A stretch of DNA of 63,085 nt, the filler included, from Chrysochromulina tobinii (Eukaryota): NCBI GenBank assembly GCA_001275005.1. It is 4 parts of 4 records of this genome, joined end to end, with 100 filler letters (N's around TTAATTAATTAA, not from the genome) between each part and the next. Parts side by side here need not be neighbours in the genome. Positions count along the whole stretch, not along the records: positions 16,846 to 31,567 come from JWZX01000680.1; 3 more parts are not named here. The stretch is one strand, 5' to 3'. Shown here one piece after another: positions 1 to 59,000 of the stretch (position 1 is the first letter of the stretch; the number at the start of each line of letters is the position of its first letter). The translations under genes and the position numbers were made by a program. The notes beneath the pieces are model-generated. The model did not search any database. It had not been told where the DNA came from and saw nothing but the letters and a program-made list of their open reading frames with translations.

Positions 1-2
1 CG

Positions 3-13795: not shown

Positions 13796-14088
13796 GAAGT
13801 CAGAAGTCGTATCGTACACCGCTGATCGGCATATGATCGGCATTGCTGTCAGACTAGATGAGAGAACGCGCCCCCTTCGCCTACTTCCTTGTGTCACCTC
13901 CACACGTCATCGCGCATCGGTCATGACGTGGCCCCCACATGCAACGAGCAACCGTGCCAGGAACCGTGCCACGCCGCACCGGCCCATTCGTGCCGTCGAG
14001 TATCATTGTTTCAGACGGTCGAGAGTGTCAGTGTGCTTCTGTAATCCCGGTAATGCGTAATCGCGAAAAATATCACAGGACCCCCTGC

Positions 14089-14241
14089 TTGACCCAAGGG
14101 GGAGTGGTCTACTATTTTTCATGTTTATAAGGCCCTAACCCCACACCTGTTTGGGAACTGAATGGTTGACCCAAGGGGGAGTGGTCTACTATTTTTCATG
14201 TTTATAAGGCCCTAACCCCACACCTGTTTGGGAACTGAATG
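14089..14241. repeat. Tandem duplication, 2 x 77 bp, relatively AT-rich
   Basis: TTGACCCAAGGGGGAGTGGTCTACTATTTTTCATGTTTATAAGGCCCTAACCCCACACCTGTTTGGGAACTGAATG starts at 14089 and again at 14166. Confidence 0.95.
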
Positions 14242-14701
14242 CCTCTCACCCCAATCCGGAATCACAAGAGTGGACGACCCCTAGATACCTCCTGCCGGAT
14301 ATCCGCGCATCGATATGCGACACCAATGCCATCGTCCAGCAAAAGTGGTCGAGGTGCTGCTCAACCTCAAGTGACTGCTCAAGCACAGCCCTTCGCCCGC
14401 GGTGCACCTCGAGGTGCTCGGCCGCCGATGGCTCGCGCTCGCTCGCAACGAATCCGTGTCCAACCTCACGAGCACCCTCTTGGGAGACCGAGCCGATCGA
14501 CGATCATCATTCATCAACAAGATAGTAACAAGATTGATGGTGAGCTGCTCCCGGCAGGCTGCGCCGACGGGTTGCGCGACGACCTTGCACGCCTTTTCGG
14601 GGCTTGTGGGTGTGTTTCTGTTCGAGAGGGCCCTGAAACGAACGTACCGGTACGAACGAAGTTACGGCGGGAAATGATTTAGTTTTGTGAGCGAGAATTC
14701 T

Positions 14702-16099
14702 ATGTCTCTAATCTGCGATGTTGCGGAGCAGACTAGCTCGACTCCGTGCGTATTCCAACGCAGTTTTGGTTGCCGCGTCGGAGATGACGGAGTACGACAA
14801 CTGTGGATCCGCCATGGATGTGGTGGAACATTTGACTGTGATGGGAAACGCGTGGTTTGTACAAGACCGAGAGCCCTTCCGAGAGCTGATGAGTTGCATC
14901 ATTGTTCATGCGAACGCTCGTTCCTAGACACGCTTCCGGGCGGGGTTTGCGTCCGTGGAGGGCATACGCTCAGCAGCTCAGTAGCATTCTGGCATTTTAT
15001 CCACGGGCACTTGCTGCCAACGTTCGAGCTGATATCCACGCAAGGGCATTACCGGCCAGATCTGCAGTTGGTATTCGAGCAAAAGATATTCAACACATGG
15101 AGTAGACGATATATGGACTTCTACCGTGCCCTCTTCGATCTACCTGTTCAAATTGGCACACGTTGCAGTGGCACGCCGAGTCATTGGCTTGTAAAACCTT
15201 ATCCACGGTTTGACATGACGATCATGCGAGGTGACAATATTAAGAACATTGAAGAGTTCAAGCATGCGGACAACAGCTCGATTGCTGCCATGTGTGAGCA
15301 CATTCCGTCATTGCATATGGTCGCCGCTGCACGTCGCTATGCCCGGCCTCGCACCCAGAGGCTGTTGCAGATCGTGTTTGTACATCGCAACGCCACCGCC
15401 GAGTCGACACCTGAGGGGACGGTCCGAGGCATCGAGAACGTGGAGGAGGTAGTCGCTGATTTGAAGAGCTTGGCGCGAGGACGAGGAGCGATCCTCAAGC
15501 AGGTGGTCTTGGAGCGCTTGCCACCGCTCGCGCAGGTCGACTTGCTCCTGGAGACCGACGTGCTCATCTCGTACCACGGCTCGGGCCTCGGCGGTGGTCA
15601 CGTATGGATGCCTCCCGGGGGAGTCGTCGTCGAGATCATGCCACATAAGTTTGACTACTGCGTCGTGGCTACCTGTGTGGCACACTCTGGCAAAGCCCAC
15701 TTAATGGTGACCACGGCAGCCACACGGCTGGCAAGGAGGTGGAAGCCTGGGGGATGGTATGCCAAGGTTGGGGGGCCGCCTGGTCTCCGCAAGGTCCACT
15801 TGCCGTCGACCTTGCACACCATGCTCAGCCTTGCTCTTGCGGTTCCAAAGGAGATCACACCGCGCGAGGCCATACAAACTGCGGCTGCGCACCTGTGCAC
15901 GGAATCTGTCGGCAGAGGGCGCAAGGATTCTATTGGCGAGACGTGTAGACTCGCTTGCCAAGGCAAAAGCCTTCAAGTCTGGGAGAAGAAAACTGGGACT
16001 CGACGAGCCGCCCGCCCAGAGACCTACGATCGAGACTTACTACGTGCGAACCAACACAACTATAACACAACGTACATCAATGTAACAACGATATCGTAG
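14702..16099 (+). CDS. Glycosyltransferase family 61-like protein with an N-terminal Cys-rich module
   Basis: FWHFIHGHLLP, R.I.N..EV, QVDLLLETDVLISYHGSGL...WMPPGGVVVEI are typical of GT61; N-terminal C..QRSFGC...LWIRHGCGGTFDC. The true start may lie upstream. Confidence 0.75.
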   Translation: MSLICDVAEQTSSTPCVFQRSFGCRVGDDGVRQLWIRHGCGGTFDCDGKRVVCTRPRALPRADELHHCSCERSFLDTLPGGVCVRGGHTLSSSVAFWHFIHGHLLPTFELISTQGHYRPDLQLVFEQKIFNTWSRRYMDFYRALFDLPVQIGTRCSGTPSHWLVKPYPRFDMTIMRGDNIKNIEEFKHADNSSIAAMCEHIPSLHMVAAARRYARPRTQRLLQIVFVHRNATAESTPEGTVRGIENVEEVVADLKSLARGRGAILKQVVLERLPPLAQVDLLLETDVLISYHGSGLGGGHVWMPPGGVVVEIMPHKFDYCVVATCVAHSGKAHLMVTTAATRLARRWKPGGWYAKVGGPPGLRKVHLPSTLHTMLSLALAVPKEITPREAIQTAAAHLCTESVGRGRKDSIGETCRLACQGKSLQVWEKKTGTRRAARPETYDRDLLRANQHNYNTTYINVTTIS

Positions 16100-16745
16100 T
16101 ACAAGTACGTATTACTGTCACAGTCGAGACAGTGATCAGTGTGTACGACTGATAGCGATCTGGGTCGTCGAGAGAATGATCATGACCCGGGACGTCGCAC
16201 GGGTAGTAAACCCTTGAGTTCATCGCGCATCTCGATGCTTCAACCGCCGACACCGACGGGGGGTGCGAGGTGGAGGTCGCAATTGAGGGGTCGGGGACCG
16301 GACGACCGGTGGAATCGCGTCGGACCGACCACAGCGAGGTCTTCGATCAACACGGGATTGCGAAAACGGCTTTTAACAGTGCACTCGGCTTTAGCTCGAC
16401 GAGGCGGCCCCCTGGTACGCGAGGTGCGATTGAGTGACGAGGCGTGCGATTTTCGGCGATCGGCACACCCTGACACACTCGGCTACGGCTCGACCATCCT
16501 GGGCTCGCCCGAGGCGAGCGGACGGCTCACCCGAGGCGAGCGGGCTGCTCATAGGGCCCATGGGTGAAGGGTATGGGCAAGTGCGGCACCTATAGTACCG
16601 TAGTAACGGTAAAAGTTGGATTCGCGCTTGACTTGACTTGACTTTACACTGCTTCTCGCATAGAGGGTCTTTTCACACCTCCGCCCAGGGTGGCCTCCAG
16701 GGTGTTGCCCTATGCTCCCACGCGGTCCCCCCCACCCCACTAGGT

Positions 16746-16845: not shown

Positions 16846-17937
16846 GGTGGCGGCGGCGGTGGCGGCGAGGCTCATGCACGCCGCGACGAGCGCCGCGCGC
16901 CGCGGACAGTTCCGTGAATGGCCGCCCATCGCGTTCGCACGCACGCTCTCGTACCTGTGGGGAAGTGGAGGGGGCGTCGTGGTGAGCACTTGCATGCACG
17001 AGGGGGAGACGCCCCCATCGCGTTCGCACGCACGCTCTCGTACCCGCACTCGTACTTGCACCTCCACACGAGCTCTGGGCCGGTGGGGCTGGTAGTACCG
17101 GTGGTAGTCGAGGCAGGGGGTTGGCGGGGCGGCGGGGCAGCCGACGCATGGGCCGGCGCGCCATCGTGGGCGCCCCTCGAGTCGGATGGGGCGCCGTCGT
17201 GGGCGCCGTCTGAGTCGGTCCAGGCGCCATCGTGGGCGCCCCTCGAGTCGGATGGGGCGCCGTCGTGGGCGCCGTCTGAGTCGGTCCAGGCGCCATCGTG
17301 GGCGCCCCTCGAGTCGGATGGGGCGCCGTCGTGGGCGCCGTCTGAGTCGGTCCAGGCGCAGATCGAGGCGCCGATCGAGGCACCGATGGACGCCAAGGTC
17401 GAGCGATCGAGCGCGCTGTGGTGAGCGCATGACGCGCTGTGATGAGCGGGTGGAGCGCTGTGGTGAGCGGATGGCGCTGCCCATGGTGCGCAGCGCGGCA
17501 GCATGTCCGACAGGCCGATCGCATTCACACCCGGAGCATTCACACCCGGCAGCATGTCCGACAGGCCGATCGCCGCTGCGACGGCGGACACTTCAGTGCA
17601 CTCCATCCCGATCGCCCAGGACGCGTCGTCGTGAGCGTCGCTCCTCCCCGTGTCGACGCTCACGACGACGCTGTCGTCCGCCGCGCCTGCCACTGCGCCT
17701 GCCGCGGCGCTCGCAGCGGCGCCTCCCATCACGGCCTCTCGACGCGCCGCAATGGCGGCCTGCAGCAGCTGCGCCGGCGGGATTGCATGCGATGTGCCCC
17801 GGAGCCGGCGCTCGCCTATTGCCAAATCGGGGATCCTATGAAGCCCTCGGTGCTTGTCGGGCAGGGTGCACCCGAATGTGCCGCATGCATCATCGCCGGG
17901 CCGCTTGATCTGCCTCTGCTGCTGCGGCCGAGGGCAT

Positions 17938-17968
<31 letters not shown>

Positions 17969-18536
17969 GTGAGGGCGGTGGCGGATGCAGCGGTGCCCGA
18001 GACGGCGCCGTCTCGTCCGCTGTGGCAGATGCCTTCATCTGCCACAGCGCCCGCCCTCGCCCTCGCCCTCGGTCTCGGCCTCGGCCTCGGCCACAATCTC
18101 GGCCATAATCTCGGCCTCGGCCTCGGCCATGGGGCCCCGGCTTCGGTTTCGGCTTGGGCGGTCCCACCGCAGCTGCAACGGTGCATGCGGCCGTGCATGC
18201 ATCCGGCATGTGCTCTTTCCATATTAGGACCTGCTCGCTGTGGAAGAGGCACGTGGTGTGGTCGTGTGGGAAATAAAGCTCCGTGAGCTCTCGGCGCCCC
18301 TGCCAGCTCGAACCGACGATGCGCGCGTCCCAGCTGTCCAGCGAACCTGATGAGGGCGCAATCAGTCAGACGCACTCAGGTGGCAATCAGAGGCCATCCG
18401 AGAACAGACGAGGCTTGTCCCAGCGCTCAGGTGTGAAGAGCGAACCTGGTGTGAAGAGGTGCGCGGGCACCCGTAGCCACGCGCCGATAGGCAGTCTATC
18501 CGCTGAGATGCCGCTGCTGCCGCCCTCGCAACACCC

Positions 18537-18576
<40 letters not shown>

Positions 18577-19304
18577 ATTCCAGAGCCGTCAGGCGCTACC
18601 CTGTCGTACTCGCCCTCGCTCGCCTGCGCGGCGACCCAGGGGTGAGCTGCGAAGCCGCGGTACTCCAAATCTTCGAGCGGCGCATGGCGCCTCGCATACG
18701 TCTCGTCGTCGCTCCCGTCCTCGCTCCCGTCCGCCTCGCCGTCCGCCTCCCCGTCCGCCTCTCCGTCCGCCTCGTCGGCCTGGTCCTCCTGCTGCTCGTC
18801 GCCCTCGCCTGCGCTGGTGCCGGCGCACGTTGACAACGGTGCAGGGAGGACGCGAAACGACGCGCGTGGCATCGCATCCGGCTTGATCGCTTGATCCATC
18901 GGCGGAAGCCGAAGCGCTGCAGCCCGGCAGATGGCAGCCGGGGAGATGACCGTGCCGTTGATGGACCACGCTTCGTCTTCGTCCGGCGCGACGCCGGCAT
19001 CTTGATCGCCCTGGGCAGTGGCAGCAGCTGGTCGATGCATCGCAACCCAAGCGTCCGCAGCCTCGATGGCGTCATGCCATGCCTGCCCTTGTCCACGCGC
19101 GGACATTGGGAGCGTCGGGAGATCTGCGTACGGCCGCAGCCTGCTCAGGCTGCACAGGCCTCGCTTGCTGTCGCCGAAGAAGAGGAGGGACGCGGTGGCG
19201 GTGTCGATGAACTGCACTATCGCAGGGTACCAAAGTCGCTTGCCGAGCCGGGCGAGCACGACGTCGCCGCGGACCAAACTGACACCATGGACAGGAGACA
19301 GCAT
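16846..19304 (-). CDS. PWWP-domain chromatin protein with Cys/His motifs (multi-exon, 3' truncated at contig end)
   Basis: GDVVLARLGKRLWYPAIV...LLFFGD...LRPY..WHDAIEAA (PWWP). Intron 18347-18445 joins it to the 16872..18209 frame. Intron 16955-17043 restores CKYECGYESVRANAMGGHSRNC. More introns are possible in 17160-17580. Confidence 0.72.
17157..17358. repeat. 66-bp tandem repeat x3 inside the PWWP gene
   Basis: Unit encodes TDSDGAHDGAPSDSRGAHDGAW on the minus strand. Confidence 0.9.
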
Positions 19305-19514
19305 GATCCGAAAGCAGGACCCCCACGCCTTGTGCGCCAGTTCGCTTCCACAGACGGCGGACGAAAAGCGGGGAGGAGGTTCTGGGCGTCGCTTTGGGAG
19401 GGGATGTTGCGATTAACGGCGCGGGAATCACGGAAAGTGTGAAATTCCACCCAGATTGACCCGAGACTTGTGGTGCGCTGCTTTTCTGCGGCAATTCCCA
19501 AGTGGCTTGACAAG

Positions 19515-22500
19515 ATGCACGCGGCAATGCTCCTCAGCTTGCTGTACCCGCCGATCACGGGCTACAGCGTGGCGTACGGCCCCGGGGCACACAGCGTGCC
19601 GCCGATCGCTCCGCAGCGGCGACCCGCGCCAGCGCGTGTGGCAGCTCTGAGGATGGAGGTGGAGGCGGCGGCGCCATCGGCGGTCCAGTTGGCTGTGTCC
19701 TCCACTTTCCAGCTCCCAGGTGGCAGCGCCGGCAGCAGCATAGGCAGCAGCAGCAGCGATGGCGGCGATGGCGGCGTCGGAGAGGAGGACTGGTCGTTCT
19801 GGCTGTCGCGCCCGCGATACGCCCGCTTGCGCGACATCGCCCTCTCCATCACCGTGCGAAGGACGGTCAACGAGGCCGAGCTCGCGCTCAAGCTCGCTCG
19901 GGAGTACTCGTCGAATCCGTCGCTGCTCCAGGATATCGACTTCTCGTCGCTGATCCTGCGGCTACAGAGAGACATCGACGTGAACAACGCGCCGCTCAGC
20001 GCCTCCGGGATGCTCTCGGCGGCCGAGCTCGACGAGATCTTGAAGCGCCAGATCGACGCGATCGCCGAGCTGAAGGCCAACCCTCTGGCGCTCGAGCTGG
20101 CGCTGGATGGAGCGGTGAGCGGCGCGGCGGGAAAGCTGCCCAAGCTGCGCCGCGTCATCTCGCGCGCTCGTGAGCTTCCGTTAACGATCGATCTGCCCGC
20201 CATCCAAGGAGACGGCGGTCTGGACTTCCGACTCGCTCTCAATGAGAGCAAGAATGTCGTCGAGGCGGTCCAGCAGGCGTGGCAGCGGCTGAGCGGCACG
20301 TCGCCCGAGAAAGAAGAGACTCTCATGACCCTCCAGCAAGAGTCGCGGGCGTTGCTCTCTCTACGCGCCGAGGCGACGAAACTCCGTGGAGGTGATGGCG
20401 TCTGATTGCCACTGATTGCCATTGATTGCCATTGATTGCCATTGATTGCCACTGATTGCCACTGATTGCCACTGATTGCCATCAGAGGCGACGAAACTCC
20501 GTGGAGGTGATGGCGTCTGATTGCCACTGATTGCCACTGATTGCCATTGATTGTCATTGATTGCCATTGATTGCCATTGATTGCCACTGATTGCCATCAG
20601 AGGCGACGAAACTCCGTGGAGGTGATGGCGTCTGATTGCCATTGATTGCCCTTGATTGCCATTGACTGCCATTGATTGCCATTGATTGCCATCAGAGGCG
20701 ACGAAACTCCGTGGAGGTGATGGCGTCCGATTGCCATGCGGCTGATGGCCACACGAGTGCAGCTGATTGCCACCCGACGCCCCTTGACGAACCCGACTCC
20801 CCTTTCGCAGGCATCAAGCTCGTGCAGCGCCAAAAGGAGCTCAAGGCGGCCTACCTAATTAGGTTTGGCACCTCGGCAGGATTGATGGAGGAGACGTTAC
20901 GCGCGGACGTGGCCATCTGCAAGCTCCAAAAGGAGCTCGGGCTCAAGTACGTTGATTGCCATTGATTGCCATTGATTGCCATTGATTGCAGATGATTGCC
21001 GATGATTGCCAATGATTCGCGAGCTGGAAGAGGGATCGTGGGCTCAAGTCCGCTCTCATCTTCGTGATTGCCTTATGATTGTGACTCGATTGCGACTGAT
21101 GATCCCTGATTGCGTCTCCCTAATATGGCAGGTCCGCTCTGCTCGAAATGGAGCGCATCTTCCTGACTCTCGAGTCTGAGCTCGCACTCACCTCGTCCCT
21201 CATCGACCAGGTGATTGATTACGTCTGATTGCATCCTGATGGGGACTGATTACTCTCGAGTCTGAGCTCGCACTCACCTCGTCCCTCATCGACCAGGTGA
21301 GGACCACTGAGGACCACTGAGGACCACTGAGTGCTATTTGATGACCTCCCATGACCTCCCATGACCTCCCATGACCACGGATGCTCCCCCGTCCGTCACC
21401 GGCCAGCTGCTCGAGGCCGTGCAGCGCTACGGCGAGATGGAGGCGAGATTGCACGCGATGGTGACCGAGGTGCAGCGAGATCAGCATGCACGCGTGGACG
21501 AGGATCAGCTACTTCAGCTCGAGCAGCAGATCTTCGTAGAGCTCTTGCAACTGGGGCTGCAGTCACAGGTAATTGACGACCTTTGAGTGCATTCTGACGA
21601 CATCCGATGACCTTTGAGAGCATACTGATGACATCCGATGACCTTTGAGAGCATGCTGATGACATCCGATGACCTTTGAGAGCATACTGATGGCATCCGA
21701 TGACCTTTGAGTGCATACTGATGACATCTGGTCGCATCTCGCAGGACACGGGTAGACCGGAAAGCTTCTCGTGGCCGCGCACGCGCGAGGCGCTCCAGGT
21801 CAATGCCAAGCGTGCCGGCGAAGGGCTTGCGTTCTACTCCCGAGGCCTCCGGCTCATGGGCGAGGATGTTCAGCTGATGGTCAATATGATCAGCCGCGCC
21901 GTCGTCCAAGGGTACGCTGATTGCGTCTGATTGCGTCTGATTGCGTCTAATTGCCTAATATGATCAGCCGCGCCGTCGTCCAAGGGTACGCCCAAGACGA
22001 CGCGAAGCTCTCTCACTGATGACTGATGACCTCACTGATGACCGTTGATCTCTCACTGATGGCCGTTGATTACCAAGGGTATGGGAAGCTCTCCCCACAG
22101 CAGAGGTAGGGGAGGCATGACAGTGCTCCCCACGGCGCCCTCTCCCCACAGGTACACCCTCAAGCCGCGGGAGGCGAAGTTGCTGCAGCGCATAGCCAAG
22201 GACCTCTTCACGCTCGTGCCCTTCGTCATCATCCTCATCATCCCTCTCTCGCCACTCGGGCATGTGCTCGTCTTCTCCTTCATCCAGCGCTTCTTCCCAG
22301 GTGATCTCCCGCTGATCTCCCGCTCATCTCTGACCTCGGATGACCTCGGATGACCTCGGATGATCACGGATGATCCCGGATGATCACGGATGATCTCGGA
22401 TGACACCTGATGACCCTTTGGAGTGCCTCTGAGCGCGATCTCGTCCTCGGCAGATTTCTACCCGTCGCAATTCACAGAGTCTCGTCAGAACATCATGTCG

Positions 22501-22849
22501 ATGTACTCGGCCATCACAGCCCCGAGCACAGGTGCGCTGACGAACCTCTGACGAACCTCTGATGACCTATGATTGCCTTCCTCATCACAGCCCCGAGCAC
22601 AGGTGCGCGGCTGAGCCTCGGTGCGGACCTCTGATGACCTATGATGAGGACCTCTGATTGCCTCCCTCATCAGGTGCGCGGCTGAGCCTCGGTGCGGACC
22701 CAGCAGAGCAGACGGAACAGGCGGGGGAGGTGGCGCAAGCAGTTGCGGGTGCGGTCATTGGCACCGAGGTGGCGCTGATGAAGGCCGAGGTGACGGAGAC
22801 GGGCAAGGCGGAGGCGGAGGCTACGGGCAAGGCGGAGACGAAGTCCTGA
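19515..22849 (+). CDS. LETM1-like protein, probably plastid-targeted; 8 exons
   Basis: Exons 19515-20391, 20811-20946, 21132-21210, 21407-21568, 21745-21911, 22152-22300, 22454-22531, 22674-22849, all GT-AG. Spliced C-terminal part reads [10 protein letters not shown]...[58 protein letters not shown] (LETM1-like). N-terminus looks like signal peptide plus transit peptide ending ALRM. Confidence 0.8.
20392..20810 (+). repeat. Intron built from (YTGATTGCCA)n 10-mers plus three copies of the exon end and donor
   Basis: Read directly from the sequence. Confidence 0.9.
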
Positions 22850-22976
22850 TCATGGCATGCTGGTGATGGCATGCTGATGATGGGCACTGTGGAGACAAAG
22901 TCATAAGTAGATAAAGGAGCAATGGCCGTCAGAAGCGTGAGTGCTGCGGCCGACACCGGCGCCGTTGGCGGCGCGA

Positions 22977-23081
22977 ATCACCGTAACGAAACGTCCATGG
23001 CCTGTGGGATCATCACCGTAACGAAACGTCCATGGCCTGTGGGATCATCACCGTAACGAAACGTCCATGGCCTGTGGGATC
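22977..23081. repeat. 35-bp perfect tandem repeat x3, downstream of the LETM1-like gene
   Basis: Unit ATCACCGTAACGAAACGTCCATGGCCTGTGGGATC, with no spacers. Confidence 0.95.
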
Positions 23082-23649
23082 AGCCTTTGGGACGCGATGA
23101 GGCCTCATGGCGGGCGTTATGAGGCGTCATGGCGGGCGCACACACGCACACACGCTATGAGCAGGCGCGCGCGTGCGGGGTGCCAGGTGAGAGAGAGAGA
23201 GAGAGGAGGACCTGAATCCCGCACTCTCGCAGTCACTTAGCCCCCCACTTTGCCTCCCCGCTTTGCCCCCCCCACCTCCAGCTGCTGGGGTGGGGGAAGA
23301 GCAGAGAGGACCTGAATCCCACAGTGCCGCCAGTTACTTTCGCCCCTCCCCCCTCAGTCTCGGGCGAGTGGTGAGACGAAGGTGCAGGAGCGCAACGGAC
23401 TGCGCGTACAGTGGGAGAATCGTCTCGGAATACATGTTGTAGTGCGTGTGTGTCGAATACATGTTGCACAGCAAAAACGAAAATACCGTCGTACAATTGT
23501 ACGACGTCCCCCCAATTGGATGAATTTTCTACTCAACTTTGTTGTCCGATTTGGAAAATCTCTGAAATCTCCGATGTGGCAAGTTGAAGTTTGAAAAAAG
23601 GGCGTTCGCGTGATTGAACACCCGATTGTGGAATCGCAAGTTTCGCGAC

Positions 23650-24003
23650 ATGCTTGAGGACTCTCTCGCGTCGCGGCTTGCCGAGAGGCGTCAGCTCAGT
23701 CAGCGCCGCCGCAGCGAAAGACCGGCTTCCCCCTGGGCTCAAGCGAGCATGAGCCTACGTACTCTATCACCTCTGTCACGTCGCGCAGAGACAGCGCGCA
23801 CGAAGTTGTTTTCCGATGAGAAGGAGCCCTTGGCCATGTTCTCGCCCGAATTCTTTTCGTTGGTGTACACCGAGCAGAAGCAAGATCGCGCGACCGGCAC
23901 CACGGAGCAGCAGAGGCGTGTGCTGCTCGCGCCCCGCTCACGCGATTCGTCGCCTCGACACGGGGGGACGCCATCACCGACGCTCGTACTCCCCATCTGG
24001 TAG
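23650..24003 (+). CDS. Hypothetical small protein (117 aa)
   Basis: ATG ORF (MLEDSLASRLAERR...) downstream of an AT-richer promoter-like stretch; no recognisable domain. Confidence 0.35.
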   Translation: MLEDSLASRLAERRQLSQRRRSERPASPWAQASMSLRTLSPLSRRAETARTKLFSDEKEPLAMFSPEFFSLVYTEQKQDRATGTTEQQRRVLLAPRSRDSSPRHGGTPSPTLVLPIW

Positions 24004-24636
24004 CCCCCCCCCCGTCGCGCGCTCGTGGGGATCCGCCCACATCCGAATGTCGACGATCTGCTCACCTACGGTCGGATAGGCTTCGATCGGGTAGGTGACG
24101 AACCCGGCCTCTCTGCTGACTAATGAGCTTCGCGGAGTGCTCTGCGATCTCATGCTCCGGTGTACCCTTGTAAAGGGTCTGGCTCAGTTGCGTGTGGCCT
24201 TCAGGATGAGCGTGACTCGCTCAGGCCGCGTACGGCTCCAGTGATGTCTACTTGTGCATTCCATGTATTCAGTGCGCGTGCGTGTCGGTGTGGAATCTGA
24301 CTCGTGCGCGTGCCGAGGTCAAAAGGGGAGGGGCTCAGGGCCGCCGGCTTGATGAACAAGCGGTGTCGTGTGTGTATCGGTCTGTATGGCGCTGGGTGTC
24401 TGCTGTGTCGGTCTCTCGCCGCCTTGAGCGCGGCGCGATCGTCGACGGTTCCTTATTTCTTCTAAGTCGAGAGTATCGGGAATAAATTTTAATATCCCGT
24501 ATGTGGTATGACTTCGATCGCCCGTCGCTAACGACACCTAAATAGAAACGATCAAAGGGATCGTGCGCGATCGCGATCGGGAGGCGAGATGTGGCGTGGA
24601 TCGACAAGTTGACTCTCGATACTCAAACTCGATCGG

Positions 24637-27600
24637 TCATCGCGTGCGCTTGGGCGCTGCTTTGGAGGGTTGCCTCGCTGTCGCGCCGCTCGACCCCTTG
24701 CGAGGCGTCGTCTTGGGCGCATGGCCGGACGAGGCTCGATCTCGCTTGGAGCTCGATCTCGGCTGAGCTGACGCCGCGCGCGGTGGCGTCGGGCTCGGCG
24801 GCGGCGGGTTCGGCGGCGGCAGCGGCGTGTGCCGCTGCCGCTTGCGTGCGGCCATGATGGTCTCGAATGCCATCTTTGTCTTCACGAAGACTTCGGTTGT
24901 ATCACGAGCCCTGTAATGACCGACGCAATCAGGTGGTCATCAGGAGTCATTATTAGTCATCAGGAGTCATCAGTAGTCACTCAGGGGGCAATCAGGTGTC
25001 ATCAGGAGTCACATCTCACGTTTGAGAGTCGAAGGCCGACGTTTTATCTGGGTGATAGACGAGCGACAGCTTCCGATATGCGGATTTCACTTCACTCGTC
25101 GAAGCGAAACGGCTGAGACCAAGCGTCGCGTATGACTCCACCAATGAGAGCCCGTCCCTCGCCCAGCGTGTGCCTGATGTGGACGAGAGACGAGGCGCCG
25201 TGGTGAGCACACGCATTCTCGGGCAGGAGCTGAGGGCATGGAAACCCCTTAATGTCCCAATCGAAGCATTTGGAGGTGCACTCAGAGGCACCCAGAGGCA
25301 CTCAGAGGCACTCAGAGGCACCCAGAGGCACTCAGAGGCACTCAGAGGCACTCAGACGCACCCAGAGGCACTCAGAGGCACTCAGAGGCAACCAGATGGG
25401 CACACCTTTAATGTCCCAATCGAAGCATTTGGAGGTGCGCCGGTCGCCACTGAAGATACACAAGCGCTCGAACGCCGTGCCGAGCGCGCGTGACCATTCG
25501 ATCTTGAGGCAGGCGTGCTCTTGCCAGCCACCGCCACCGAGCGCGTGAATGACGAACCTGGCGAGCCGATCGGGTCTGAGCATGCACATGCCGCCGCTGA
25601 CGAAACGCGCCGCGTTGAGCGTGCGCTCTCGCCCGTCGACGGTGAGTGGCACCTGATGAGGGAGGCAATCAGCCACCATTAGGACGCCATCAGTCGTACT
25701 CTGGACGTAATCAGTCCCCATCAGAATGCAATCAGACGTAACCGGTCCCCATCAGGATGCAATCTGACACAATCAGCGTACCGTCTGGCGCATGAGGAAT
25801 GCAATCAGCCTGATGAGGGAGGCAATCAGACACAATCAGCGTACCGTCTGGCGCATGAGGAATGCAATCAGCCTGATGAGGGAGGCAATCTGACACAATC
25901 AGCGTACCGTCTGGCGCATGAGCAGCCCTGCGAGCACCAGAGCCCAGAACGACGCGGCGACGAACCTGATGAGGGAGGCAATCAGTCTGATGAGGCATGC
26001 AATCAGATATGTGAGCCCAGAACGACGCGGCGACGCACGTGACGGCCAGTGCCGCGAGCAAAGAGCGGCGCGGCTGTCGTGTGGACGGACGTCGACGTAA
26101 CGACCGTAGATTGACCGCCATGGCCGCGAGCAGCAGAGGTAACGTGACGCCGCCGCGCCCGGCATCCGTCGCGGCGGCGGCGGCGCCGGGAAGCCAGAGG
26201 GGCGCATAGCCACACCTGATGAACGACACAATCAGAGGCCATCAGAGGCCATCAGAGGCCATCAGAGGCCATCAGAGGCCATTCAGAGGTCATCAGAGGC
26301 CATCAGAGGTCATCAGAGGTCATCAGAGGTCATCCGAGGTCATCCGAGGACATCCGTGGCCATCAGAGGTCACTCAGAGGCCATCAGAGGTCATTAGAGG
26401 TCATCAGAGGTGATCAGAGGTCATCAGAGGTCATCAGAGGTCGTCAGAGGTCATCAGAGGTCATCAGAGGTCATCAGAGGCATTTTGAGGTCATCAGAGG
26501 TCATCATCACCTCTCGATCACAGCGCCACCGAAAGCGCTCAGCGCGAGGAGCCTGTTGGGTACCGGTAGCCCCGTCGTGCCGGCAGCGAGGAAGAGGGTC
26601 AGCAGCGCGCAGCTTGCATGCACCTAATGAGGGACGCAATCAGAGGTATTTAGAGGTCCTCAGAAGAGGCACTCAGGGTTGCATGCATACAGTCATGCAC
26701 CTGATGAGGGACGCAATCAGAGGTATTTAGAGGTCCTCAGAAGAGGGTTGCATGCATACCGTCATACGGAGCGTGGGCGACAGCAATCAGTCTGATGAGG
26801 CATGTAATCAGAAGAGGCTCTCAGGGTTGCATGCATACCGTCATACGGAGCGTGGGCGACAGCAGTGGCGGGTCTAGACTGCTGCTGAAGCGCAGTGCGT
26901 GATATGTGAGCCACGAACCTGTATTCATGGTACAAGAGGCGACCCGTCGCTGTCAGTCGCCATCTGTCGCAATCAGACGCAATCCGACGCACTCAGTCGC
27001 GCTCAGTACGTGATGCGTGCGCCACGCACCCAGAGGCCATCAGAGGCGATACGCACCCTGAGCAATCAGTTTCAATCAAATGCAATCAAATGCAATCAGA
27101 GGCCATCAGAGGTCATCGGAGGCCATCAGAGGCGCCACGCACCCAGGGCAAGGTGCCAGCTCAGACTGATGAGGGAGGCAATCAGTCTGATGAGGCATGC
27201 AATCAGATATGTGAGCCACGCACCCAGGGCAAGGTGCCAGCTCAGACGATAGAGCAGCCGCACCGCGCCGGAGAGTACGCTGAGCTCCGAGGCCATCATC
27301 ACCGTCTCACTCGCTAGAGGCTGACCAGCGACGCTCTCAGCGCGAGTTGCCACATTTGGGGCGACCTTAGCGAGTTGCCATTTTTGGGTCGGCACAGCCG
27401 CCGCGCCGCCGTGGGCACCCCCCTTGTCAAGCACCGAGGCTAGCGAGGCTGGAGAGGCTTCGAGGCTAGCGAGGCTGGAGAAGGCCTTCGAAGCGTCTCT
27501 CGAGGCAGGCTTTGACGACACCGCACCTCGAAGCCTCGCGATGGCTCCGACGGCCCAAAGGCTCAGCTTGCCCACAGTGTCGAACGCGCCACCGCGGCTG

Positions 27601-28037
27601 CCGCCGCTCGGATGGGCTTCGGCCTCGGCCTGGCCGAGCTGTCGCACGTAGCTCGGGATGCGGAACGCGTCGCGCACCCAGCCGAGCAGGAACCCGTTGA
27701 GCGAGATCGACGAGACGAGCGCCTCGCAGTTCCGGCCGAGGTACAGATGATGTGCGCCGAAGATGCCAAAGAGGGCCCAGAGCACGTACGCGACGAGCAT
27801 CCGGAACACCGAGAACGGGACTCGCACGGCAGGAGCACCAGCCGGTGCGTGTGCCTCGTTGGGGACGGCGGCAGGCGCGGAAGCCGCCCGTGCTGCGCGC
27901 AGCTCTGAGGCGATCAGCAGCTCTCTGCGTGCTGAAACGGTCCGCCCGACGCCATGGAGCTGGCCATCAATGGCGGCGGTGCTGGAGAGCATGAGAAGCA
28001 GCAGGATGCCGGCTATGGGTGGCGAACTTCGTCTCAT
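24637..28037 (-). CDS. TM2-domain + multi-TM + C-terminal DnaJ protein (DNAJC22/wurst-like); 8 exons
   Basis: Introns 26919-27223, 26624-26838, 26216-26510, 25966-26038, 25653-25907, 25174-25405, 24911-25019. TM2 motif LVAYVLWALFGIFGAHHLYLGR...GWVRDAFRIPSYV; J domain YATLGL..SEVKSAYRKLSLVYHPDK..FVKTKMAFETI; signal-like N-terminus MRRSSPPIAGILLLLML. Confidence 0.82.
26216..26510 (-). repeat. Intron consisting almost entirely of (CTGATGRCCT)n 10-mers
   Basis: Read directly (plus strand CATCAGAGGT/C repeats). Confidence 0.9.
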
Positions 28038-28511
28038 TGTGGCTTTTGCAGTGGCTTTGAGGTACCGCATGTGAGGACGCCACCCTTCTGCGAGCGCGAG
28101 TGAATGGTCAACGGCGTGTGATGACGCGTGTGAATGGTCAACGGCACAGACGGCGCATTCTCTGCTCAAGCAAGGACAAAGTTTGTGGAGGTCCTGTAAA
28201 TCGTGACGCAAGGTTGGTAGTTGACCTACCTGACAACACGCGACAGAAGAACTGGCAGGTGCGTCGAAGCATTGCATGATAATGACGTGGCCCCGACCCA
28301 CCGCCATATCATAGCTGGACACGTCTCCGGGGATGGCAGGAGCAGGAACACGGCCAGGAACACGGCCCGAGCCACCGAACTCGCCGAGAGCACGTCGGAA
28401 CACATGTGTGTGCTGAGAGCACAGATCACAGCTCCGGGCGGGCGCTGTGGCGCTGAGGCAAGTATCTCCGCCCAAATCAGGCAAGTATCTCCGCTGTCTC
28501 GGGGCCGCCGT

Positions 28512-28600
28512 TAGGCGCTCTGCTGGGCACCCTCTGCTGCCGGTAGGCGCCCTGCTGGGCACCCTCTGCTGCTGTAGGCGCCCTGCTGGGCACCCTCTGC
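28512..28600. repeat. ~32-bp tandem repeat x3 downstream of the DEAD-box gene
   Basis: Unit approximately TAGGCGCCCTGCTGGGCACCCTCTGCTGCCGG. Confidence 0.85.
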
Positions 28601-28835
28601 CGCGTATGTCCACTCGTCCGCATGCCGCATGCATCGGCCGCCGCGCCGCGCCGTATCGAGCGCGCCGACGTCCTCATGCCGCATATGCATCGGCCGGTCT
28701 GACCGCGCCGTATCGGGCGCCCGCTGCGCACATCTCTCTCGCTCTCAGTGAGTCAGATGCCCCCTTACGCTCACACGCACGCACGCGCGCGCACCTCCCT
28801 CACCCTCTCTCGCGCGCGTAGGTGCGAACATCTGC

Positions 28836-31256
<2,421 letters not shown>

Positions 31257-31428
31257 GGACGGCGGTGTCGTGCGACGTCACCCAGGGGCTCGATTCCGCA
31301 AGAGACTGAAGATTCCTTTTGGACGAAAAACGGACGTCGACCCCCCCTACTAGAGTCTTCGCAAAACTTCCGAATCCAGCGTGAATATCCCGGCGTCTGT
31401 TTTGCGGAAATCCGCGCGATCGCGCCAA

Positions 31429-31567
31429 ATGCCGCCCAAGCGCGGCCGCTCGGCTGCCGAGGCCGAGGATGAGACGGCGCAGCTGCGCCGACACAAGAGC
31501 GCCTTCGAGGAGGCCATGAACGAGTTCCTCTGCCCCATCACCTTCTCGCTGCCCGTCGACCCCGTCA
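31429..31567 (+). CDS. U-box domain protein, 5' fragment (truncated at contig end)
   Basis: MPPKRGR...NEFLCPITFSLPVDPV matches the start of a U-box. Confidence 0.75.
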
Positions 31568-31667: not shown

Positions 31668-31955
31668 AATACGCGTGGCAAAAGCCGCATTCGAGCCGGC
31701 ACACGGCACGCATGTGGGGCGTTCTCGGGATGAGCAAGTGTTCGGTTCGTACGAGTGTCAGCGTGCGTCGTCGTGCGCTCTCCATGCTACTCGGGCACTG
31801 TGTGTTAGGGCATGAGCCGCTCTCCGTGTGTGAGGTCGCGTGAACGGTTTCTTGGGTGGAAGGCCCGCGTCTAGCGGTTCACAGATCAGAATTTCAGACC
31901 CCCTGGTTCACCCGATCGGTCGAAGAGGCCCCTCCCTTTCCCGTTGCCTCGAGAA

Positions 31956-37616: not shown

Positions 37617-37663
37617 GGGAACTACCAAAAATCCTCTGGTTCTCGTGCCAATTTCTTCGTTTC

Positions 37664-53496: not shown

Positions 53497-53528
<32 letters not shown>

Positions 53529-56067: not shown

Positions 56068-59000
56068 ATGGCCGAGGCGATGCTGGATGACGCCTTGATG
56101 CGAGAGGCGCTCGGTCTTCGCCGTCGCGGCGCCGTCAACTACACGCAGGAGCTCGTGCACGAAGACGAGCCAGAGCCTCCGAAAAAGCGCCGAGCGGGCG
56201 GAACCGCCGCGGGCGAAGGCTCCTCTCGGAGCGGCGCGCGCAAGCCAGCGGCCAGCAGCGCGCGCAAGCGCCGAACGCGTGGCGCCGACTCGGATGATGA
56301 CGACGACGATGACGATGAGGACGATGAGGACGAGGACTTTAGCGAGGACGAGCCGCCGCAGCGCAAGGCCAAAGGTCGTGGCTCGAAGGCCGCCCCGAGG
56401 CAGAGCGTGCGCTCGGAGCCGCGCGGCAAGTACAAGGAGCCGAGCGACGATGACGACGACTTCCACAGCGACGACGGCGACGAGCGCCGTGGCGGTGCGG
56501 CCGCGGTGGCCGCCGTGCAGTCGATCTACGACAAGATCCTCTCGCAGCGCCCGGCGGAGAAAGCAGGCGAGGAGGAGGGCGAGGTGGAGCCATCGGACAG
56601 CACCGAGTACCTCGCCAAGCCGCGCGGCAAGTGCGTCTGCGCCGCCGCCGCTGCGTGCCGTGCGCGTCTCGCCGTGCCGTCGCCAGCCCGTTGGTCTGCG
56701 CCCCGCGATGGCTCGTGTGCACTGCACCCGGCCCTGCCGCTGCCCACCTGCCGCTGCCCACCTGCCGCTGCTCACCTGCCCCTGCCGCCGCCGGCTTCCA
56801 ACGATGATTCGATTCCGTGCGCTCGTGTTGCCTGGTTGTCTGCCATTTCCTCTCTGCCTGCGCCTTGGCCGCCGTCGTCCTGTGATGAGAGCGCTCATCA
56901 CATAGTGAGCCACCCCCCTTTATTGGGGCGTGCCTCTCTTCTCTGATGATCCAACGAAGCTTCAGTTTGAGAATACCTGAGGACTGCCCGTCTGGCTGTG
57001 CAGCGCTGGCTGGCTGCTTGGCTGCTTGGCTGCTTGGCTGGCGAGCTGTGGCTGGCTGGCTGTGCCTCTCTCTGCACGTGGCTGCCTGGCAGTCTGTCTG
57101 GCAGTCCTGCCTGGCTGTCTGTCTGACTGACTGGCAGACTGTGTCTCGGTTGCGACACGAGCGCACGCGTGTCCGGCGCCCGTCTCGGCGCCTATCTCGG
57201 CCCCTTTCCCCACACCATGCCCACTGCACCCTCTCATCGCCACCGCTCCATTCCTCTCGCGTCCTCCCCCCCTCCACCCAGGTCGTACATACATTGCGTG
57301 TGGATCCCAGAAGAGCAGGTGCTTGAAGACACACCTGATGACACCTGATGGCACCTGATGACACCTGATGACGCCTGATGACGCCTGGCTGATGACTCTC
57401 GGATGACCTCTCCGATGGCTGCAGGTCCTCGCCGACCATCAAGGCCTCGCACGCCTGCGCCGCTGGCAGAAGCAATGGTCCATGCTGCAGGAAGAGTTCC
57501 GGTACGGCATACTCACTCGGAGTGCCTCTGATGACTGACGAGCGTACTCACTCGGAGTGCCTCTGATGACTGACGAGCGTACTCACTCGGAGTGCCTCTG
57601 ATGACGACACTCATTTGCATCCGAGTGCGTCTGATGGCGACACCGATGGCGTGTGCATGCAGGTACGATGCACTCAAGGCGGCCGAGTGGGAGCCCTACC
57701 CTCAGGAATGGGAACAAGTCGAGCGCGTGGTGGCACAGCGATGCGAGGCGCCGGGCGAGATTGAATACCTCATCAAGTGGCGGCAACTCACCTATGCAGA
57801 TGCGAGCTGGGAGCTGGCCGAGGTGTGATTGCCATCTGATTTCCATCTGAGGCCCATCTGCGTGCCATCTGAGGGCCGTCTAATGGCCTCCACCATCAGG
57901 ATGTGCACGACGACGACGCGATCACAGCCTTCGAGCAACGGCAGCAGAGGCCGACACATGAATGGTACACCAAGCCGCTCGCGTCGGGCCGGAAGGAGCG
58001 TACCCCGTGGGCGAAATGCGCTTCGTCACCCGCCTACAAGGGCAGCAACACGCTGCGCGAGTATCAGCTCGAAGGTCTCAATTGGCTCTCCTTCTGCTGG
58101 CACACGAAAGTCAACTCGATCCTGGCGGATGAGATGGGGCTGGGCAAGACGATCCAATCGGTCTCGCTCCTCAATTATCTGTTTGAGAAGCAGGGTGTGT
58201 GGGGACCGTATCTGGTGGTGGCGCCGCTCTCCACGCTGCCGCACTGGCAGGTGTGTGTCGCTGAGTGCCGCTGAGTGCTGCTGAGTGACGCTGAGTGCTG
58301 CTGAGTGACGCTGAGTGACGCTGAGTGACGCTTGCCACTTCCGCAACGGCAGCGCGAGCTCGAGAGCTGATGGCCTCTAATGACTCGGATTCGCCTCGAA
58401 TGAGCTCTGATTGCCTCCCTCATCAGCGCGAGCTCGAGAGCTGGACCAAGCTGAACACGGTCATCTACCATGGTTCGAAGGAAGCACGCCAAGCGATCCT
58501 GCAGCACGAGTGGTGGTTTGAGGACGATGCGACCGGTGGCCGTTCCAAGAAGGGGGCGCAGCTGCACAAGTTCAATGTGCTCTTGACCACGTACGTCGCC
58601 TCTGATGACCCCCTATGACCTCCGATGACCTCCGATGACCTCCGATGACCTCCGATGACCTCCGATGACCTCCGATGACCGCCGATGACCGCCGATGACC
58701 GCCGATGACCTCCAATCGCCTCGCTCATCAGGTATGAGATGGTCAACCTGCCGTACGCGCCCGGCGAGCCTCACCTCGCCTCGACGCACTGGCGCTGCCT
58801 CGTCGTCGACGAAGCTCATCGACTGAAGAACTCGGACTCCAAGCTCAATCAAGAACTCGAAAAGTTCACGACTGACCATATGCTGCTGCTCACCGGCACC
58901 CCGCTGCAGAACAACCCGACTGAGCTGTATAGTCTGCTGCACGTAGCGTCACCGGCCGAGTTCCCCTCGTTCGAAGCCTTCGAAGGGCGCTTCGGCGACC

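Follow-up and report, generated by a model that had tools for sequence, protein, structure and literature searches.

It has long been asked how new spliceosomal introns originate, and in most introns no trace of their origin is left. Recursive splice sites, at which an AG|GT is regenerated, are found in the long introns of Drosophila and vertebrates, which measure tens of kilobases. The systems closest to the one described here are the introners, the neointrons of Daphnia pulex and the fungal stwintrons. Introners are short, multi-copy intron families whose insertion is bracketed by a target duplication; in the available parts of the sources, these duplications are fixed and short (3-8 nt in dinoflagellates, 4 bp in Chrysochromulina), and many published families have terminal inverted repeats (bioRxiv 10.1101/2020.10.14.339549; PMC9860276). 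Introners occur in Micromonas, Aureococcus, Symbiodinium, Polarella and a Chrysochromulina MAG. Introner families of unknown mechanism, some of them from non-LTR retrotransposons, are described in the available part of PMC12130899, and the insert family presented below was not found there.

In Daphnia pulex, neointrons are attributed to the repair of staggered double-strand breaks, and alleles with and without the intron occur. Their repeats are 4-12 bp long, most of the inserted DNA has no known source, and one category, called 'staggered then staggered', consists of repeated staggered breaks inside young introns (PMC4202315, available in part). An internal copy of a whole exon junction is not described for these neointrons in the available part of PMC4202315. 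In fungal stwintrons, one intron is nested in, or abuts, the splice site of another, the inner intron is removed first and so rebuilds the outer donor, and similar copies are present at new positions (PMC12403724, available in part). Regarding haptophyte intron arrays, nothing relevant was found in the literature searched.

The window, that is, the whole stretch of DNA analysed here (63,085 nt from Chrysochromulina tobinii, assembly GCA_001275005.1), contains a LETM1-like gene of eight RNA-supported exons, read in a single open frame that starts at the ATG at 19515 and stops in exon 8; exon 6 presents a Pfam LETM1_RBD match (25.6 bits versus a cut-off of 25.3). Coordinates refer to the plus strand unless the minus strand is indicated. 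Intron 2 of this gene (20947..21131, 185 nt) has GT..AG ends and agrees with the open frame, and 20946 is joined to 21132 by RNA contigs in 4/4 runs, which upholds the splice sites assumed in the initial annotation. Inside this intron, at 21040..21056, there is an exact 17-nt copy of the exon 2/exon 3 junction, GGGCTCAAGTCCGCTCT, whose coordinates and sequence had been given correctly in that annotation. Positions 21040-21047 are GGGCTCAA and positions 21048-21056 are GTCCGCTCT, while the edges of the intron read GGGCTCAA|GTACG at the donor and GGCAG|GTCCGCTCT at the acceptor. At its centre the copy reads CAA|GT, with no AG. The stretch 20994-21086 is without RNA contig cover, a fact with no bearing on the copy.

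The copy lies between two segments, named X-left and X-right. A left repeat composed of the exon 2 end GGGCTCAA and the donor GTACG (20939..20951) matches 21040-21052 in 12/13 positions, 10 nt of them exact (GGGCTCAAGT), and the sole mismatch is donor position +3, which is A in 20939-20951 and C in the internal copy. X-left (20949..21039, 91 nt) combines an array of the 10-mer TTGATTGCCA with a unique tail, and the array shares 89-97% identity with those of intron 1. On the other side, X-right (21057..21131, 75 nt) ends in CTGATTGCGTCTCCCTAATATGGCAG, which is the source of a branch-point-like CTGAT, the pyrimidine tract and the acceptor, and it is followed by the exon 3 start (21132..21140), whose 9 nt GTCCGCTCT are identical to 21048-21056.

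Intron 7 of the same gene (22532..22673) carries a longer copy, exact over 47 nt (22583..22629), which holds AG|GT and is made of 20 nt of the exon 7 end and 27 nt of the exon 8 start. RNA contigs join 22528/22531 to 22671/22674 in 3/4 runs. This intron is formed by two halves of exactly 71 nt each, with a 16-nt stretch common to both, and by two direct repeats with the same spacing of 71: one of 26 nt (20 nt of the exon end plus GTGCGC) and one of 30 nt (CAG plus 27 nt of the exon start). Its first 6 nt are identical to the first 6 nt of exon 8. The inserted segment (X) of the first half shows 95.7% identity over 46 nt to the start of an intron of a DEAD-box gene (30427-30382, minus strand), and on this ground the exon 8 start, which the first 20 nt of this X seem to resemble, was rejected as its origin.

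The remaining copy is in a CHD-type helicase gene, in an intron of 176 nt (58251..58426) delimited by homology and open frame, its splice sites resting on homology: the exon ending ...PHWQ aligns to residues 727-794 of the CHD4 chain 6ryr_W and the exon starting RELESW to residues 795-853, so that CHD4 residues 794|795 meet at the junction. The frame of the seven-intron CHD model is uninterrupted. The copy (58338..58369, 32 nt) matches the spliced junction in 29/32 positions, with 12/15 in the left arm and 17/17 in the right arm, and so extends beyond the 58348-58369 given in the initial annotation; the earlier statement that just 2 nt separate it from the acceptor was therefore too modest, given a left arm of 15 nt. 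It is followed at 58370..58443 by a 54-nt X ending CTGATTGCCTCCCTCAT and the second copy of a 20-nt repeat, CAGCGCGAGCTCGAGAGCTG, which consists of CAG plus 17 nt and in this second copy contains the acceptor in use.

To count such matches, introns were curated by RNA joints, frame continuity and homology; a dynamic-programming gene finder was dropped, as it gave too many predictions on this GC-rich DNA, on either strand, and did not reproduce the RNA-supported model. In the curated set, 20 introns of the window that come from repeat-rich genes and of which 13 rest on frame continuity, not RNA, a junction-spanning exact match of at least 14 nt was present in 4/20 cognate introns (one of the four being really a donor-side duplication) versus 0/380 non-cognate pairs, with a non-cognate maximum of 8 nt. 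The comparison of cognate with non-cognate introns proposed in the initial annotation was thus strongly positive on this set, and its argument that recurrence goes beyond chance gains a third copy in intron 7. Local alignment scores were 34, 49 (CHD) and 94, versus maxima of 21-24 in 300 shuffles each (24 for CHD). Chance is excluded as the source of the junction copies. The three copies, of 17, 32 and 47 nt, hold a single junction each and end where the flanking duplications end. Furthermore, 10/20 curated introns contain an exact copy of at least 14 nt of their own flanking exon, versus 0/380 non-cognate pairs, and in 20/20 the upstream exon ends in AG or the downstream exon starts with GT, giving AG...AG or GT...GT edges. 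These edges and copies, together with the secondary internal repeats, are the features of staggered-break neointrons in Daphnia; unlike in Daphnia, repeats of up to 49 nt occur here, and the inserts can be assigned to recognisable families carried by introns.

In all three copies, each arm forms a direct repeat with the exon edge on its side, and this repeat crosses the splice site. The left arm pairs with the end of the exon and the first bases of the intron, the right arm with the downstream exon start (plus CAG in 2/3 cases), and in introns 2 and 7 it is the outermost donor and acceptor that are joined in RNA. Two overlapping target-site duplications at one junction would leave the unsplit ancestral sequence in the middle. 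The internal copy is therefore probably the original, uninterrupted exon sequence, left between two target-duplicating DNA insertions, and the source of the junction copies is likely DNA, not spliced RNA. The initial annotation had rightly noted that neither genomic splice junction alone explains the intron-2 match; the two junctions together do so through the overlapping duplications, and its implied idea of a copy of the spliced RNA junction gives way to this.

For intron 2, a first insertion, that of X-right with its CTGAT branch-point-like motif, pyrimidine tract and CAG, would have duplicated GTCCGCTCT, and the upstream copy of GTCCGCTCT would have served as donor, creating an 84-nt intron. 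The target duplicated by a second insertion, that of X-left, would then have been GGGCTCAAGTCCG, which straddles the exon/intron edge. Its upstream copy would have become the new donor, with a later change from C to A at +3, and the stranded middle copy, spliced out with the intron, could drift neutrally. In the CHD intron, the order may have been the reverse: an older, donor-carrying insert first, whose 15-nt duplication is now 12/15, and a younger acceptor-side insert second, with a perfect 20-nt duplication. In intron 7, the 26- and 30-nt duplications would both span the same AG|GT. This two-event model corresponds to the scheme of figure 3F for Daphnia in the available part of PMC4202315. 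Several points count against it. The arms of the intron-2 copy are short (10 and 9 nt exact), to our knowledge no characterised transposase makes duplications of 9-49 nt, and no reverse transcriptase or endonuclease gene was found in the window.

The same footprint is repeated elsewhere in the window, where short CTGAT-rich intron modules (X) are repeatedly bracketed by direct target duplications (R) of 9-49 nt in the arrangement [R][X][R]. One-sided footprints are commoner than junction copies, with about eight further events in the same genes, and internal direct repeats are found in introns 1, 2, 3, 5 and 7 of the LETM1-like gene, in the CHD introns at 58251 and 60730 and in the minus-strand introns at 27223, 26838 and 25907. 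The R lengths within the window are 9, 10, 20, 23-26, 26, 30, 31, 33, 35, 42 and 49 nt, and no fixed duplication length of the transposase type was found there. X segments from introns of different genes share 95-100% identity.

In intron 3, an 86-nt unit (21215..21300) comprises a 37-nt X, 32/33 identical to 25741-25709 of the minus strand, and the second copy of a 49-nt repeat made of the exon 3 end and the donor GTGA. Intron 1 contains the exon 1 end plus donor (at least 33 nt) four times, with 10-mer arrays between them (20370..20727); it is a true tandem amplification of a 95-115-nt unit, and the first of the four repeated donors is the one used in RNA contigs. At 21883..21991, a 35-nt repeat of the exon 5 end and donor GTACGC surrounds a 39-nt X, and the first donor is used in 3/4 RNA runs. 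On the minus strand, a predicted 73-nt intron (25966..26038) would consist of a 26-nt target duplication, with 1 mismatch at donor +3, and a 47-nt X ending CTGATTGCCTCCCTCATCAG, and this X (26012-25966) is 47/47 identical to 27212-27166. Another predicted intron of 89 nt (16956..17044, minus strand) presents a perfect target duplication of 30-31 nt starting GTACGAG and a 58-nt X of a different family, ending CCCCACAG; its removal would restore the reading frame. A predicted intron of mirror type (25248..25405, minus strand) has an X that starts GTGTGCCC and carries a CTCTGAGTGC array, and its acceptor AG is supplied by a 31-nt copy of the upstream exon end.

R can give either splice site. It provides the donor GT in 16956-17044, in 25966-26038, in both halves of intron 7 and in the right half of intron 2, and the acceptor AG in 25248-25405 and in the left half of the CHD intron. 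The single mismatches between the donor-side and exon copies (intron 2, 27223 and 26038) are located at donor +3 in 3/3 cases, with a purine in the donor copy. The 20-mer CTGATTGCCTCCCTCATCAG occurs 17 times with at most 3 mismatches (8 exact) in four genes and on both strands, versus 0.01 expected in 63 kb, and at 9/17 of these sites the 30 nt after the CAG have an exact copy of at least 17 nt, situated 30-118 nt upstream of the motif.

The intron-2 copy is also present in four other metagenome assemblies (L001, L003, L004 and L005), so it is not an assembly artefact. In L004, the 17-mer carries 1 substitution relative to the window and the whole 185-nt intron 6 differences, while exons 2 and 3 have none; judged from these differences, the stranded copy appears to evolve like intron sequence. 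In L003, the array of X-left is longer by two units. Against the two-step reading stands the fact that no allele with one insert only was seen: L003 and L004 both carry the complete structure of intron 2, the one of the three introns that other strains covered, and the two-step order is therefore inferred. In intron 3, the 86-nt X+R unit is missing from L004 (about 97% identical), whose sequence there is an exact empty site, CGACCAG|GTGA|GGACCACTG. The difference corresponds to a secondary insertion in an existing intron and may be a gain or a loss; loss by deletion between the 49-nt repeats would produce just such an empty site. Finally, the exon-end-plus-donor unit of intron 1 is found in 2, 2, 4 and at least 4 copies in four assemblies (2 in both L003 and L004, at least 4 in L002).

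Concerning the known systems, this locus resembles the introners in having many similar copies in introns of unrelated genes and flanking duplications with a recruited splice site. The introner logic appears here in both orientations, as an end in ...CTCATCAG with a GT-starting duplication and as a GTGTG... start with an AG-ending duplication. Unlike in introners, the duplications measure 9-49 nt and vary per event, the 5' part of the insert is variable and its 3' end fixed, and there are 10-nt CTGAT arrays. Unlike in stwintrons, RNA contigs show the outermost sites joined directly, and the inner ones are redundant. The intron-7 copy is like a recursive site in having a formal AG|GT, whose use would regenerate the same exon end; unlike the introns with recursive sites, those described here measure 142-185 nt, and AG|GT is present in the intron-7 copy only, the one in intron 2 being without AG.

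Among the alternatives, the one that survives best is one episode of replication or repair in which several template switches guided by microhomology (MMBIR/FoSTeS or polymerase-theta templated insertion) copied pieces of other introns and twice returned to the gene at an upstream point, which would produce both duplications and the middle copy at once. Short bases common to the insert edges and the putative sources are as this process would leave them (GGCTC at the left edge of the 26038 intron; CATCA and GTRCGC in the first half of intron 7), and the equal 71-nt halves of intron 7, with their common 16 nt, hint that the events in that intron were not independent. Moreover, the copy at 26012-25966 carries 9 nt, TCACATATC, that are exon-derived in its source, as expected of copying from a locus and not from a master element. 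Nevertheless, we consider a single episode unlikely: the CHD duplications, 12/15 on the left versus 20/20 on the right, suggest different ages, one-sided events occur alone and one of them is polymorphic by itself, and the duplication adjoining the same CAG end at 9 of the 17 motif copies argues for a defined insert terminus, not arbitrary switch points.

An RNA origin, by insertion into the intron of a reverse-transcribed fragment of spliced mRNA or by a template switch between pre-mRNA and mRNA, would account for the identity of the copy with the spliced sequence, and an RNA intermediate could explain why the arrays and inserts all run in the same sense as their genes, whichever the strand. 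It is, however, unnecessary, as the ancestral unsplit exon has the same sequence, and very improbable. It leaves unexplained the 6 nt shared by the starts of intron 7 and exon 8 and the intron ends that repeat exon ends, and the one-sided duplications of exon end plus donor include intron bases absent from mRNA. The copies span just 17-47 nt, and none among the curated introns reaches a second junction, the mark of a retroposed cDNA.

Highly improbable, too, is a plain tandem duplication of an AGGT-containing exon segment followed by divergence of its intronic part (the Rogers model). Intron 7, whose junction holds AG|GT and whose two periods are both 71 nt, and the tandem amplification of intron 1 recall this model, but what lies between the perfect repeats has no relation to the adjacent exon sequence and is 95-100% identical to other introns, a combination that uniform divergence cannot give, and the intron-2 copy has CAA|GT instead of AG. 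The least probable reading is that the copy is kept for a function, as a recursive (two-step) AG|GT splice site or a splicing-factor decoy. In its favour are the complete AG|GT of the 47-nt copy, with a CTGAT/pyrimidine module upstream, and one RNA contig of a single run (X13) that lacks only the second 71-nt half of intron 7. This contig, however, may be a graph chimera, and in the other 3 runs the product is that of one-step splicing; moreover, CAA|GT cannot be an acceptor and the intron-2 copy is substituted in L004.

Regarding the route of the two proposed insertions, a target-primed or staggered-break insertion would fit better than a cut-and-paste transposase, because the duplications are long and variable and the commonest insert has a defined 3' end. 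Events of this kind are already known from introners and from the staggered-break neointrons of Daphnia; what is unusual is the long, variable duplications. Together with a 3' splice-module end that is fixed, they are at odds with the transposase-type introners known to date and point to a repair-based or target-primed route. We offer, as a tentative and rather doubtful generalisation, that this haptophyte-type alga may have an undescribed active process that copies half- or mini-intron modules of about 40-60 nt into genes with target duplications of 9-49 nt, making introns of about 66-89 nt, and that repeated hits on the same junction might give larger introns with a fossil of the pre-intron exon. 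The modules would be of two classes, one ending in the complete 3' splice module CTGATTGCCTCCCTCATCAG and the other starting GTGTG..., and the fixed 3' and variable 5' ends could be the mark of a target-primed insertion for which excised intron RNA might serve as template.

If the two-insertion explanation is true, the internal copy preserves the gene sequence as it was before the interruption, with the flanking duplications as marks of each insertion. One genome would then suffice for reading how, and in what order, introns were gained and grew, and strains that differ at these sites would allow tests. Duplicated donors, duplicated acceptors and junction copies of 30-50 nt also confuse gene prediction and short-read transcript assembly. 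In one run (X12), an RNA contig skips 74 nt at 21882-21957; stepwise splicing or an allele was rejected as an explanation of this contig and of that of X13, given that the repeats involved, 47 nt in common with the spliced mRNA for X13 and 35 nt for X12, are longer than the sampled 31-letter words, so that graph chimeras are possible.

The copy of the exon 2/exon 3 junction reported by the initial annotation inside intron 2 (20947-21131) of the LETM1-like gene was recovered in both sequence and position, as GGGCTCAA|GTCCGCTCT at 21040-21056 on the plus strand. The splice sites assigned to this intron also held, with RNA contigs joining 20946 to 21132 across GT..AG ends in all four of the four runs, and the stretch is present in 17 public sequencing runs, 6 of them RNA. 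Read together, the eight exons of the gene keep one frame open between the ATG at 19515 and a stop in exon 8, and exon 6 matches Pfam LETM1_RBD at 25.6 bits (cut-off 25.3). Five of the remaining six introns show RNA joints in 3 or 4 of 4 runs, and for intron 3 the support consists of one contig and of a loose end at 21210 whose sequence continues into the start of exon 4. In every intron of this gene with duplicated donors, the outermost (first) donor is the one joined in RNA. The intron 2 copy is also found in four further metagenome assemblies (L001, L003, L004 and L005). Over 20700-23500, L001 and L005 do not differ from the window and bring no further information. L004 is 94-98% identical over the aligned parts, with a C-to-A change within the 17-nt copy, 6 differences in the 185 nt of the intron and none in exons 2 and 3. 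Judging from the L004 comparison, the stranded copy drifts as intron sequence does.

The junction copies are neither chance nor artefact. Local alignment of junction against intron gave scores of 34, 49 and 94, versus shuffle maxima of 21-24 (300 shuffles each). The comparison of cognate and non-cognate introns proposed by the initial annotation was made on 20 curated introns, namely seven with RNA support, seven of the CHD gene (based on frame continuity, one also on homology) and six of a minus-strand gene (frame continuity only). In this set, which comes from repeat-rich genes because the DEAD-box gene, intron 16956-17044, the upstream CHD introns and all genes of pieces 1 and 3 lie outside it (the pieces, separated by N runs, are 1-16745, 16846-31567, 31668-50710 and 50811-63085), enrichment was found: junction-spanning exact matches of at least 14 nt occur in 4/20 cognate pairs (17, 22, 33 and 47 nt) versus 0/380 non-cognate ones (maximum 8 nt). 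The 33-nt match, in intron 5, is really a donor-side duplication, which only seems to span the junction because the donor GTAC equals the start of the next exon by coincidence. Exact copies of at least 14 nt taken from the 40 nt of exon that flank the same intron are present in 10 of the 20 cognate cases and 0/380 non-cognate ones (maximum 12 nt).

Intron 7 (22532-22673) is a third case, far stronger than intron 2 and the CHD intron, since 22583-22629 (plus strand) reproduces the junction exactly over 47 nt, 20 nt from exon 7 and 27 nt from exon 8. This middle copy is the union of two repeats, one of 26 nt (CATCACAGCCCCGAGCACAG + GTGCGC) and one of 30 nt (CAG + GTGCGCGGCTGAGCCTCGGTGCGGACC), and for this reason the intron opens with the same 6 nt as exon 8 and closes with the same 3 nt as exon 7. 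Each half of the intron is exactly 71 nt, and a 16-nt stretch is common to both. One RNA contig (run X13) suggests stepwise use of the internal AG|GT, but this contig may be a chimera of the assembly, as these 47 nt are common to the internal copy and the true spliced mRNA.

The second site described initially belongs to a CHD-type chromatin remodeller, whose exon ending PHWQ aligns with residues 727-794 of CHD4 (6ryr_W) and whose exon starting RELESW aligns with residues 795-853, so that the junction of intron 58251-58426 would be fixed by homology to CHD4; the frame is uninterrupted through the seven-intron model. The match to the spliced junction was borne out here, but its extent had been understated: it covers 32 nt (58338-58369, plus strand) with 29/32 identities, 12/15 in the left arm and 17/17 in the right. 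The right repeat is 20/20, CAG included, and the left arm abuts an insert starting GTGTG. Two other introns of this gene, both on the plus strand, also carry internal copies. In 59650-59914 the terminal 21 nt (AAGGTGCTCCTCTACTCGCAG) agree at 17/21 positions with those of the upstream exon (AAGGTCCTCATCTTCTCGCAG). They resemble an old acceptor-supplying duplication and also provide an alternative, in-frame acceptor; a third, more decayed copy lies near 59745. Intron 60730-60842 opens on a 37-nt unit whose ends are intron-like (GTGCGC...CTCATTCAG); next come a decayed copy of the start of the downstream exon and then the second copy of a 30-nt module. The two module copies match at 30/30 positions, and the exon-derived copy that separates them is diverged.

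A search for non-tandem direct repeats (repeats of period ≤12 discarded) revealed a recurring structure in which a gene stretch R of 9-49 nt occurs twice with an insert X of 32-128 nt between, and R crosses or touches a splice site in all cases. Donor-side R, comprising the exon end and first intron bases, was found in introns 1 (at least 33 nt, four copies), 3 (49 nt) and 5 (35 nt), and on the minus strand at 27223 (33 nt), 26838 (42 nt) and 25907 (31 nt). Acceptor-side R occurs at CHD 58350/58424 (20 nt, CAG plus exon start) and at 60733/60810 (30 nt). Some units are predicted to be whole young introns: 16956-17044 (minus strand, 89 nt) consists of a perfect 30-31-nt duplication starting GTACGAG and a 58-nt X ending CCCCACAG, and 25966-26038 (minus strand, 73 nt) of a 26-nt duplication with one mismatch and a 47-nt X; each 71-nt half of intron 7 is also of this kind. 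In a mirror type, X starts GTGTG and the duplication provides the AG, as in 25248-25405 (minus strand, with R of 31 nt) and on the left side of the CHD intron. Repeat spacings show a cluster at 63-89 nt in spite of the variation in R and X. In 20/20 curated introns the upstream exon ends in AG or the downstream exon starts with GT (12 of each, 4 both). The donor-side copies of intron 2, 27223 and 26038 are one base off the exon copy, always at donor +3 and with a purine in the donor copy, which may reflect later tuning of the recruited donor. Downstream of 25248-25405, to about 24500 on the minus strand, the six-exon open frame does not run into the following DnaJ-like frame (SYATLGL...YHPDK), and another small intron or a different acceptor is likely there.

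Near-copies of the X segments occur in other introns, without exception in sense relative to the gene that carries them. The X of intron 3 matches 25741-25709(-) at 32/33 positions. The X in the first half of intron 7 shows, over 46 nt, 95.7% identity with the opening 58 nt of an intron in a DEAD-box gene (30432-30376(-)), and the X of 25966-26038 matches 27212-27166 at 47/47 positions and contains 9 nt (TCACATATC) which at the source are an old duplication of the downstream exon. The 20-mer CTGATTGCCTCCCTCATCAG, a branch-point-like CTGAT followed by a pyrimidine tract and CAG, occurs 17 times (≤3 mismatches) versus 0.01 expected, and 0/100 shuffles reach 17. At 9/17 sites the 30 nt after the CAG have an exact copy of at least 17 nt, 30-118 nt upstream of the motif, so the insert has a defined 3' end abutting the duplication and a variable 5' part. 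X of 16956-17044 seems to come from a second abundant repeat family without CTGAT arrays, since over 16956-17013 in runs X1 and X11, 14-15 DNA contigs per run match to 16997 and continue into unlike sequence, and the summed depth of bin 16846-17336, which does not equal copy number, is about 40x that of neighbouring bins.

Strain differences were also observed. In L004, the 86-nt unit that the window carries in intron 3 (the 37-nt X plus the second copy of the 49-nt repeat) is missing and the sequence reads as an exact empty site, ...CATCGACCAG|GTGA|GGACCACTG, a difference that may reflect either gain or loss of the unit; the R-X-R junctions of this intron are spanned by an RNA-library contig (21185-21281). 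Exon-end-plus-donor units of intron 1 number two in L003, two in L004, at least four in L002 and four in the window. Strain variation extends even to the last bases ahead of an acceptor, as L004 (3690-3710 versus window 21396-21406) carries 11 additional bases (CCTCACATTCA) directly before the CAG of intron 3.

The best explanation, which we consider probable, is that two insertions of intron-derived modules, each duplicating its target, left the ancestral junction stranded between them. R-X-R units would arise by insertion of foreign intron DNA, and the junction copy would be the place where two of them overlap. Intron 2 has a left repeat, GGGCTCAAGT, of 10 nt exact (12/13 if GTACG versus GTCCG is counted), a 91-nt left insert (20949-21039), a 75-nt right insert (21057-21131) and a 9-nt right repeat, GTCCGCTCT. 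The right insert ends in the CTGAT, pyrimidine tract and CAG module and the GT comes from the duplication, so it is the only one of the two that can form a working intron by itself; the middle copy reads CAA|GT and is thus unusable as an acceptor. For these reasons the right insert would have come first and the left one second. In the CHD intron the left insertion would have preceded the right one, in agreement with its decayed left and perfect right duplications. Since alleles holding a single half of intron 2 are absent from the strain assemblies compared, the two-step build of introns 2, 7 and CHD is read from anatomy. A single complex event with template switching would also fit, and short bases in common at some insert edges (GGCTC, CATCA) agree with it. 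Copying from spliced RNA, a reading implied by the initial annotation, gives no reason why the ends of intron 7 equal the exon 8 start and exon 7 end, and it is superfluous if junction copies are overlaps of two duplications.

As in introners, one splice site is recruited from the target duplication. However, in the parts of this literature consulted, introner duplications are short and fixed (3-8 nt in Symbiodinium/Polarella, 4 bp in a Chrysochromulina genome; bioRxiv 10.1101/2020.10.14.339549; PMC9860276), in contrast to the variable 9-49 nt found here, and further families are retrotransposon-derived or of unknown mechanism (PMC12130899). As far as the available text describes them, Daphnia neointrons carry, at their far end, direct repeats that copy 4-12 bp of the terminal exon sequence, and staggered events recur inside new introns (PMC4202315), which is the scheme proposed here. 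Neither a whole-junction internal copy nor duplications up to 49 nt were found described in the portions of the literature searched, and the supplementary datasets of PMC12130899 may list haptophyte families. What makes the finding of moderate to good interest is that these introns document internally how they arose and that their mode of insertion seems different from that of described introners.

Regarding the window as a whole, the DNA is eukaryotic with a GC content of 64%, and CTGAT-containing 10-nt units in tandem arrays fill the introns of genes on two pieces. No reverse transcriptase, transposase or endonuclease genes were found in it, and Pfam searches of nine long frames gave cellular domains only. 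Two long intron-free frames on the plus strand, 7859-13795 (1,978 aa, with ankyrin, anoctamin and choline-transporter-like domains together) and 37864-45858 (2,664 aa, with TIG and C2 domains), adjoin genes with one intron per 80-400 nt, a sharp contrast in intron density between neighbours. Moreover, a perfect 77-nt tandem duplication at 14089-14241 is AT-richer (TTGACCCAAGGGGGAGTGG...TTTTTCATGTTTATAAGG...) than its GC-rich surroundings. Between them, 45821-45998 and 47542-47801 hold perfect tandem repeats of 64 nt and 46 nt and an 84-87-nt repeat in three copies (94%), all of them outside the CTGAT-array introns.
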